Below are positions 60,406 to 60,615 of a stretch of 64,000 bases of DNA, in pieces. Every line of letters begins with the position of its first letter. The first letter of the stretch is position 1. Below the pieces are notes generated by a model. The model was not told the origin of the DNA. It made no database searches and worked only from the letters and a program-made list of their open reading frames with translations. Source of the DNA: Escherichia coli. GTDB lineage: Bacteria > Pseudomonadota > Gammaproteobacteria > Enterobacterales > Enterobacteriaceae. The position numbers and the translations under genes are program-made. Where the stretch lies: the NCBI RefSeq assembly GCF_003334385.1, contig NZ_QOWN01000003.1; one strand, 5' to 3'.

Positions 60406-60433
60406 ACGCCGGAGAGAAAAATCTCCGGCGTTT
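60406..60433 (+). terminator. intrinsic terminator downstream of uidC
   Basis: CGCCGGAGA-GAAAAA-TCTCCGGCG followed by TTT. Confidence 0.55.
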
Positions 60434-60463
60434 CAGATTGTTGACAAAGTGCGCGTTTTTTAT

Positions 60464-60560
60464 GCCGGATGCGGCGTAAACGCCTTATCCAGCCTACAAA
60501 AACTCATAAATTCAAAGTGTTGCAGGAAAAGGTAGGCCTGATAAGCGTAGCGCATCAGGC
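60464..60560. repeat. REP/BIME pair between uidC and ydgA
   Basis: GCCGGATGCGGCGTAAACGCCTTATCCAGCCTAC and inverted GTAGGCCTGATAAGCGTAGCGCATCAGGC. Confidence 0.85.
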
Positions 60561-60583
60561 AATCTCTGGTTTGTTTTCAGATG

Positions 60584-60615
60584 AAAACGCCGGAGTGAAA
60601 ATTCTCCGGCGTTTT
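60584..60615 (-). terminator. intrinsic terminator downstream of ydgA
   Basis: CGCCGGAG-TGAAAATT-CTCCGGCG flanked by A4 and T4; near-identical to the uidC terminator. Confidence 0.55.

Follow-up and report, generated by a model that had tools for sequence, protein, structure and literature searches.

A BIME-1 unit flanked by two copies of a terminator hairpin between uidC and ydgA of Escherichia coli, and the recurrence of this footprint at other BIME-1 loci

REP/BIME repeats constitute a sizeable share of enterobacterial intergenic DNA and affect mRNA stability, transcription termination, and the binding of IHF and gyrase. The 64,000-nucleotide stretch of E. coli DNA analysed here (the window) contains a pair of REP units in the 225-nt spacer between the convergent genes uidC and ydgA, and this pair is bracketed by two near-identical hairpins, one beside each stop codon. 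The locus thus raises the question of how two genes that converge on a short spacer came to possess the same terminator-like hairpin twice, and what the REP pair located between the copies had to do with it. The first-pass annotation of the sequence proposed that a terminator module had been duplicated, with the BIME inserted between the copies, rather than that two terminators had evolved independently. The analysis described below points to a single ancestral terminator hairpin that was duplicated by insertion of a BIME-1 unit, a reading that is given a probability of roughly 0.78 and that draws on the same footprint being present at many loci. The features of the locus are collected in Table 1.

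Table 1 Features of the uidC–ydgA spacer and its borders, in window coordinates.
Feature	Coordinates	Strand	Sequence or basis
uidC CDS	59134..60399	+	open reading frame and annotation; stop 5 nt before hairpin 1
Hairpin 1 (left copy of the target-site duplication)	60405..60433		AACGCCGGAGAGAAAAATCTCCGGCGTTT; loop GAGAGAAAAATCTC
BIME-1 unit	60433/4-60585		
Left outer motif of the BIME-1 unit (left terminal inverted repeat)	60433..60462	+	TCAGATTGTTGACAAAGTGCGCGTTTTTTA
Y-type REP (palindromic unit)	60463..60497	+	3' end CTAC; inverted-repeat arms, family alignment
L linker, 34 nt	60498..60531	+	alignable with other family members
IHF-like core in the linker	60510-60522		ATTCAAAGTGTTG; sequence match of 12/13 to the IHF consensus WATCAANNNNTTR
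Z-type REP	60532..60561	+	5' GTAG at 60532; GTAGGCCTGATAAGCGTAGCGCATCAGGCA; inverted-repeat arms, family alignment
Right outer motif of the unit	60562..60585	+	ATCTCTGGTTTGTTTTCAGATGAA; degenerate version of the family right terminus ATTTTGCGTTTGTCATCAGTCTCA
Hairpin 2 (right copy of the target-site duplication)	60586..60614		AACGCCGGAGTGAAAATTCTCCGGCGTTT; loop GAGTGAAAATTCTC
ydgA 3' substitution patch	60619..60715	-	~14 nearly all synonymous differences, last ~100 nt
ydgA CDS	60625..62133	-	open reading frame and annotation; stop 10 nt from hairpin 2

The two 29-nt hairpin segments form a direct repeat with 27/29 identity and a start-to-start spacing of 181 nt, which agrees with their initial description as near-identical copies in direct orientation. 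Both are perfect inverted repeats; hairpin 1 has an 11-bp stem and a 6-nt loop, and hairpin 2 a 12-bp stem and an 8-nt loop. Comparison of the two copies yields 26/28 matches in direct orientation and 21/28 in inverted orientation, the direct alignment fitting better because both loops are A-rich on the + strand. The pattern CGCCGGAG-N8-CTCCGGCG occurs at only two sites in the 64-kb window, namely the two hairpins, against an expectation of 0.01 from shuffled sequences. A chance likeness of the hairpins was ruled out by this expectation and by the null distribution of mismatched flank pairs described below. RNA folding of either strand gave each hairpin a free energy of -20 to -21.5 kcal/mol, with z values of -4.9 to -6.8.

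The position of these GC-rich stem-loops directly downstream of the stop codons (5 nt for uidC and 10 nt for ydgA, stems of 11–12 bp) is consistent with the labels of uidC and ydgA terminators given to them in the first pass. The labels require a qualification, however, because a simple terminator scan flags hairpin 1 on the - strand only, with the tail ATTTTTTACT. On the + strand, the uidC side, hairpin 1 is followed by TTTC only (UUUC in RNA). The tract after hairpin 2 reads TTTTGG on the + strand and TTTTCATC on the - strand, the latter corresponding to UUUUCAUC in the RNA of ydgA. After the stem the gene-proximal hairpins have three or four U only; the distal copies retain the original tracts, UUUUGG and UUAUUUUUU.

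As had also been recognized, the hairpins enclose two REPs, one of the Y type and one of the Z type, in opposite orientations around a linker. The linker contains a putative IHF site, scored against the established IHF consensus (Table 1). The unit in the window is a BIME-1 of the ordinary kind, which has long been known. The 46-nt segment after hairpin 1 (…TTTCAGATTGTTGACAAAGTGCGCGTTTTTTATGCCGGAT) occurs in 3–27 copies per E. coli genome, with a median of 14. Further copies reside at dacB-cgtA, downstream of tkt, and at tsx-yajD, and their alignment defines one family with the order Y REP, L linker and Z REP. In the aligned dacB-cgtA, tkt and tsx-yajD copies family conservation starts directly after the locus-specific hairpin, with a sharp onset at the T of TCAG in the left outer motif, and it extends past the REPs by ~30 nt on the left and 24 nt on the right. 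When one genome per species was scanned for the family pattern, 35 loci were recovered, distributed over E. coli-like genomes, E. albertii, E. whittamii, Pseudocitrobacter and two further Escherichia species, and a scan of metagenome contigs contributed 80 additional stretches. In a position profile of 54 units, conservation begins at the T of TCAGATTG and tails off after …CATCAGTCTCA, which corresponds to a unit of 153–154 nt. The consensus outer ends of the family, TCAGATTGTTGACAAA and TTTGTCATCAGTCTCA, are inverted repeats at 13/16 positions. The right terminus of the window copy is degenerate and matches the left end at 8/16 positions only.

The 8-nt sequence TTTCAGAT is present both at 60431-60438 and in the right outer motif, because both are unit ends. 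Its interpretation as a separate short target duplication, with tandem hairpins already in place, was rejected: TCAGAT and TCAGTCT are conserved unit ends everywhere, and the empty sites are devoid of TCAG. A search of Rfam yielded only sub-threshold matches, the best of which was naRNA4 at 60453-60494 on the - strand, with 37 bits compared with the gathering threshold of 59.5. As naRNA4 originates from a REP cluster, a match on the Y REP is no surprise. The spacer carries no repeat annotation in NC_000913.3.

The unit is extragenic, located between the convergent uidC and ydgA stops, and it is a single unit in K-12; arrays occur in other species. Most family copies have a gene end at a distance of 2–85 nt on one or both sides and are found in both orientations, as judged by a crude neighbour-ORF analysis that is too noisy for an orientation rule to be drawn from it. 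Examination by hand of two loci on the K-12 map, uidC-ydgA and dacB-cgtA, revealed no consistent orientation with respect to replication. Two observations on individual genomes belong here. In Escherichia sp. MOD1-EC7003 the 153-nt unit forms tandem arrays (L032, ~800–1950; also L031, L034, L035, L039, L040 and L044) in which up to 8 copies follow one another every ~160–175 nt; a full hairpin is present at both array ends, and the inter-unit spacers consist of a whole hairpin (L039) or of half a hairpin only (L032). The species-cluster representative SCPM-O-B-8794 (L013–L020), designated 'Escherichia coli', is ~80–92% identical to E. coli proper (at gudD-barA only) and may be another Escherichia species despite its name.

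The history of the hairpin pair can be read from alleles that do not contain the BIME. The full-length allele is present in 1751 of 5426 complete E. coli genomes. The other sampled genomes carry an allele that is exactly 181 bp shorter, the same length as the repeat spacing, with one hairpin and no BIME. Two length classes only, 531 and 350–351 nt, were seen among the alleles sampled from 5468 records, and a two-hairpin allele devoid of the BIME was absent from the sampled E. coli alleles. Four short alleles were inspected, and each has one hairpin and no REP. The short-allele hairpin combines the left flank and the loop of copy 1 with the right flank of copy 2 (…GAAGTAA-AAA-T/A-AACGCCGGAGAGAAAAATCTCCGGCGTTTTGGCT…), its loop being the same GAGAGAAAAATCTC as that of hairpin 1. 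The corresponding loci of E. albertii and E. fergusonii, which were reached via YdgA homologues, contain a single homologous hairpin after ydgA, with neither a BIME nor an adjoining uidC. An additional candidate outgroup, L055, whose YdgA is 86% identical, was rejected; the last 240 nt of its ydgA are E. coli-like, and it carries the short-allele hairpin. In the E. coli strain SWHEFF_68 (L004), which carries the short allele, uidC is annotated as two pseudogene fragments and the gene is disrupted.

Because the short alleles and both E. albertii and E. fergusonii carry one hairpin, the single hairpin is the ancestral state; it belongs to ydgA as its terminator and predates the uidC neighbourhood. 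The K-12 hairpin pair is a derived duplication tied to the BIME. Strains lacking the REP pair had been named in the first pass as the informative comparison, and their single, ancestral hairpin supports one terminator module duplicated around the BIME over two independent terminators.

The same arrangement was sought at the other family loci. When the left and right flanks of each copy were compared with one another, 14/34 copies exhibited a direct repeat that exceeds the 99th percentile of mismatched pairs. The repeat always stops just before TCAGATTG and resumes 23–25 nt after the Z REP, positions that coincide with the unit ends. After merging of genome and metagenome loci, the flank repeat is found at 17/36 distinct loci, with lengths of 17–28 nt and a median of 22 nt, and the window repeat is the longest of the 17. 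With few exceptions these repeats form hairpins that have one to three A/T pairs at the foot of the stem, and the length of the duplication follows the palindrome. The hairpin sequence varies from locus to locus. Since it differs at every locus, the hairpin is part of the target rather than of the unit. The recurrence of hairpin-unit-hairpin at 17/36 loci with locus-specific hairpins further indicates that the duplication was made together with the insertion and not before it. The common origin of the two terminators that was initially proposed is thereby retained, and what changes is the order of events, the duplication not being an earlier step. About half of the family copies have no hairpin duplication, and some of these have truncated right ends. 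Eleven copies have an intact right terminus and no flank repeat; the hairpin-duplication footprint is either not universal or decaying.

Empty sites are available as sequenced alleles at three loci: uidC-ydgA, tkt-prohibitin and dacB-cgtA. At tkt-prohibitin, E. coli strains with 0, 1 or 2 units have 1, 2 or 3 copies, respectively, of GGGCCGC-GAAA-GCGGCCC, and the insert of 174 nt equals a 152-nt unit plus a 22-nt hairpin. The E. coli strain 51489 (L047) has the order hairpin-unit-hairpin-unit-hairpin at this locus, the three hairpins being identical. At dacB-cgtA, a single hairpin is found in the empty allele and the order hairpin-unit-hairpin in E. whittamii (L025). The filled E. coli allele of dacB-cgtA (L005/L007) has undergone a 31-nt deletion extending to the cgtA stop, by which the right hairpin and the terminal 8 nt of the unit were removed. 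This deletion shows how copies with no visible duplication can arise. An empty site of the gudD-barA locus (L020) was not found; all E. coli genomes are occupied there, and the draft from which the locus derives is ~92% identical to E. coli.

Some individual copies without two matching hairpins deserve mention. The metagenome contig L088 has the left hairpin GGGATCGTAAGATCCC and an unrelated right hairpin of the gudD-barA type, AACGGGTCCTTACAGAGCCGG; this combination stems either from rearrangement of two BIME-1 loci or from a chimeric assembly. The E. whittamii locus L023 has no hairpin duplication and carries at its junctions an 11-nt direct repeat that is not a hairpin, TGGCGAAAAAA. Likewise, L013/L022 has no hairpin duplication and has the short direct repeat GTAT at the junctions. 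Insertion away from a palindrome may produce such a short duplication.

The K-12 allele may have a more complicated history than that of a single insertion event. K-12 and a short-allele strain are near-identical for kilobases on both sides of the spacer except within the substitution patch at the 3' end of ydgA (Table 1), where all but one of the ~14 differences are synonymous. Linkage between the patch and the BIME is complete: the K-12-like patch is present in 1755 genomes and the long allele in 1751, and no genome falls between 98% and 90.6% identity over the patch. At 8/13 diagnostic patch sites the K-12 state is that of E. albertii. The left hairpin copy has the E. coli-type loop. The right copy, which adjoins the patch, has outgroup-like states, in that the two substitutions in its loop equal the states in E. 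fergusonii and E. albertii. The full linkage of the K-12 allele to a synonymous patch suggests import from a diverged lineage, and, most simply, a diverged Escherichia donor in which the insertion was already present would have passed the unit, hairpin 2 and the ydgA end to the K-12-type lineages by recombination. The K-12 allele may thus be a recombinant rather than the direct product of one insertion.

The reverse event, loss of the unit, can also be recognized. The sequence expected after deletion on the K-12 haplotype was constructed and then searched for, which revealed three single-hairpin genomes on this haplotype; two match at 200/200 positions with the loop of copy 1 and one matches at 200/200 with the loop of copy 2. 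H9Ecoli and PS2Canimalfeces12 are regarded as natural revertants, and H9Ecoli, one of the three, is otherwise identical to K-12 over 7 kb. The hairpin copies are substrates for precise loss of the unit, with crossovers on either side of the loop differences. Alternatively, the genome with the copy 2 loop may preserve the donor haplotype in its state before the insertion. Tandem gain, as in the tkt and MOD1-EC7003 arrays, is probably driven by recombination between hairpin copies as well. The uidB gene of H9Ecoli (L137) is frameshifted.

The sequence of events that we favour begins with an ancestral state in which uidC and ydgA would have converged on one palindromic hairpin acting as a bidirectional terminator. 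A BIME-1 unit of ~153 nt (RIB/RIP, REPIN-type), the outer motifs of which would serve as imperfect terminal inverted repeats, is proposed to have inserted at this hairpin and to have duplicated the whole palindrome (AA, stem-loop and TT, 28–29 nt), leaving one copy on each side. Each gene would then have kept a hairpin beside its stop codon, followed by the end of the unit (TTTCAG...). The far copy, with the original T-tract, lies beyond the REP pair and could serve as a back-up terminator. As to the chemistry, we infer that the palindrome, extruded or folded, would be opened on both strands at its feet, giving a stagger equal to the hairpin length, and that gap filling would copy the hairpin. 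The candidate enzyme is the REP-associated Y1 transposase (TnpA-REP, yafM), though its known chemistry predicts no duplication. TnpA-REP carries out single-strand cutting between C and T (C|T), and the IS200/IS605 elements related to it neither leave a duplication nor depend on inverted repeats (PMC3333891). A consistent C|T was not found at the junctions; some left junctions read C|TTCAG, and that of the window reads GTTTCAG.

What the sequences show directly is the coupling of the duplication to the insertion, the recurrence of the footprint with fixed junctions at many loci, and precise deletion of the unit between the copies. A more general reading is put forward tentatively, as the odds lie slightly against it: BIME-1 would be a true insertion element that targets intrinsic-terminator palindromes and, on integrating, duplicates the complete hairpin, with the length of the target-site duplication set by DNA structure instead of a fixed stagger. 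If this is true, the footprint would be incompatible with the route assumed for REP/RAYT, a single-strand 'peel and paste' process that leaves no duplication, and would point to cleavage of both strands at the hairpin feet, resembling in outline the duplication of CRISPR repeats. It would also provide a testable signature of REP doublets colonising gene 3' ends, often between a terminator and a back-up terminator.

Template switching is the main alternative, though an unlikely one. Replication would stall at the hairpin, and the nascent end would copy a BIME-1 elsewhere, return upstream and recopy the hairpin. Such a process would account for a duplicated segment that is always the whole palindrome and for unit boundaries that abut the hairpin feet at both donor-like and target loci. 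It is also compatible with the A/T microhomology at the junctions (TT before TCAG, A after TCTC) and with tandem arrays that hold a whole or half hairpin between units (L039, L047, L032). However, the unit ends are sharp and form inverted repeats, as would rather be expected if a recombinase recognized the ends, and the hairpins of different loci share no sequence, so that the switch would have only 2–3 nt to rely on. Moreover, chimeric or variable-endpoint copies, which are a usual product of template switching, do not stand out in the copy listing, with the possible exception of L088.

The remaining alternatives concern the order of events or the origin of the hairpins. That the long allele is ancestral and the common single-hairpin allele arose by deletion between the copies (BIME-1 'excision') is very improbable. 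Precise deletions do occur, as the three K-12-haplotype genomes with a single hairpin demonstrate, but the common short alleles reside on a different and more diverse haplotype that has no K-12 patch, and were therefore not derived from a long allele of the K-12 type. In addition, E. albertii and E. fergusonii have one hairpin, and the origin of the two copies would be left unexplained. A tandem duplication of the terminator followed by later arrival of the BIME between the copies would result in the same final structure; it has no direct support and is more improbable still. It conflicts with the presence of two length classes only among the sampled alleles and with a hairpin number at tkt that always equals the number of units plus one, and it would demand a prior tandem duplication at each of the 17 fixed-junction loci, which is not credible. 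Finally, the two terminators could be independent, by chance or convergence, since GC-rich stems with A/T flanks are common among intrinsic terminators, or the hairpins could have been carried by the mobile unit. Hardly any probability attaches to either version: 0.01 chance matches are expected in the window and the loops match as well, the empty sites keep exactly one copy, and the hairpin is a different one at every locus. Duplication of one ancestral hairpin by the BIME-1 insertion is thus retained as the preferred reading.

The unit shares with the BIME-1/RIB/RIP class the inverted Y and Z REPs, the ~34-nt linker with an IHF-like core and the REPIN-type doublet organization, as well as the extragenic location at convergent gene 3' ends, the many dispersed single copies and the presence/absence polymorphism. 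Such polymorphism of BIME-1 between strains has already been reported, as stated in a passage of PMC1187871 citing Bachellier 1997. What goes beyond the available BIME-1 descriptions (PMC3333891, PMC2817692, PMC8266576, PMC3116915) is the presence of inverted-repeat ends ~30 and 24 nt past the REPs, and the location of the unit at terminator hairpins, flanked by duplication of the hairpin. The IS200/IS605 Y1 HUH transposition underlying the TnpA-REP/RAYT model has in common with the present family hairpin-centred recognition, GTAG-bearing REPs and association with hairpin feet. In the window, the GTAG at the start of the Z REP (60532) and the CTAC at the end of the Y REP (60497) may be regarded, by sequence, as a RAYT-type guide. 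However, IS200/IS605 elements make no target duplication and do not need terminal inverted repeats (PMC3333891, PMC2817692), whereas both a duplication of 17–29 nt and inverted-repeat ends are observed here.

Miniature inverted-repeat elements (MITEs) resemble the BIME-1 unit in being short and non-coding, with terminal inverted repeats, flanking direct repeats, and filled and empty alleles. The family has the terminal inverted repeats (13/16) and a target-site duplication with a one-copy empty site, of atypical length: the duplication of MITEs is short, fixed and set by the transposase, whereas that of BIME-1 is 17–28 nt and varies with the target palindrome. CRISPR integration by Cas1-Cas2, assisted in E. 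coli by IHF, duplicates a partly palindromic repeat of ~28 nt via attacks at both of its borders. The analogy would extend to the repeat-insert-repeat footprint only; the insert here is a 153-nt repeat unit, the palindrome is locus-specific and there is no indication of Cas involvement. Class C group II introns insert just after the stem-loops of intrinsic terminators. They offer an analogy in that the target would be set by the terminator hairpin and not by sequence, but they are retroelements with a reverse transcriptase, and their insertion is one-sided, with no hairpin duplication.

Neither the targeting of terminators nor a flanking duplication is mentioned in the REP/BIME/REPIN mobility literature surveyed (PMC3333891, PMC2817692, PMC3116915/PMC3337134, PMC3686654, PMC8266576), a scope outside which the BIME papers of the 1990s fall. 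The feature in the window is known biology, and the general hairpin-duplication footprint is a probably unreported variant property of a known family. The mechanism of REP dissemination was still called unresolved in 2021 (PMC8266576). The three-part footprint described here, consisting of inverted-repeat ends, a terminator palindrome as the target and duplication of the whole hairpin, constrains that mechanism and argues against a plain IS200/IS605 route. For the annotation of enterobacterial genomes, a near-identical terminator pair around a REP doublet is to be read as one ancestral terminator. The footprint also accounts for the occurrence of BIME-1 units at gene 3' ends; after an insertion each of two convergent genes can still possess a terminator hairpin, and the hairpin copies provide the unit with a built-in route for precise loss and tandem amplification by recombination.
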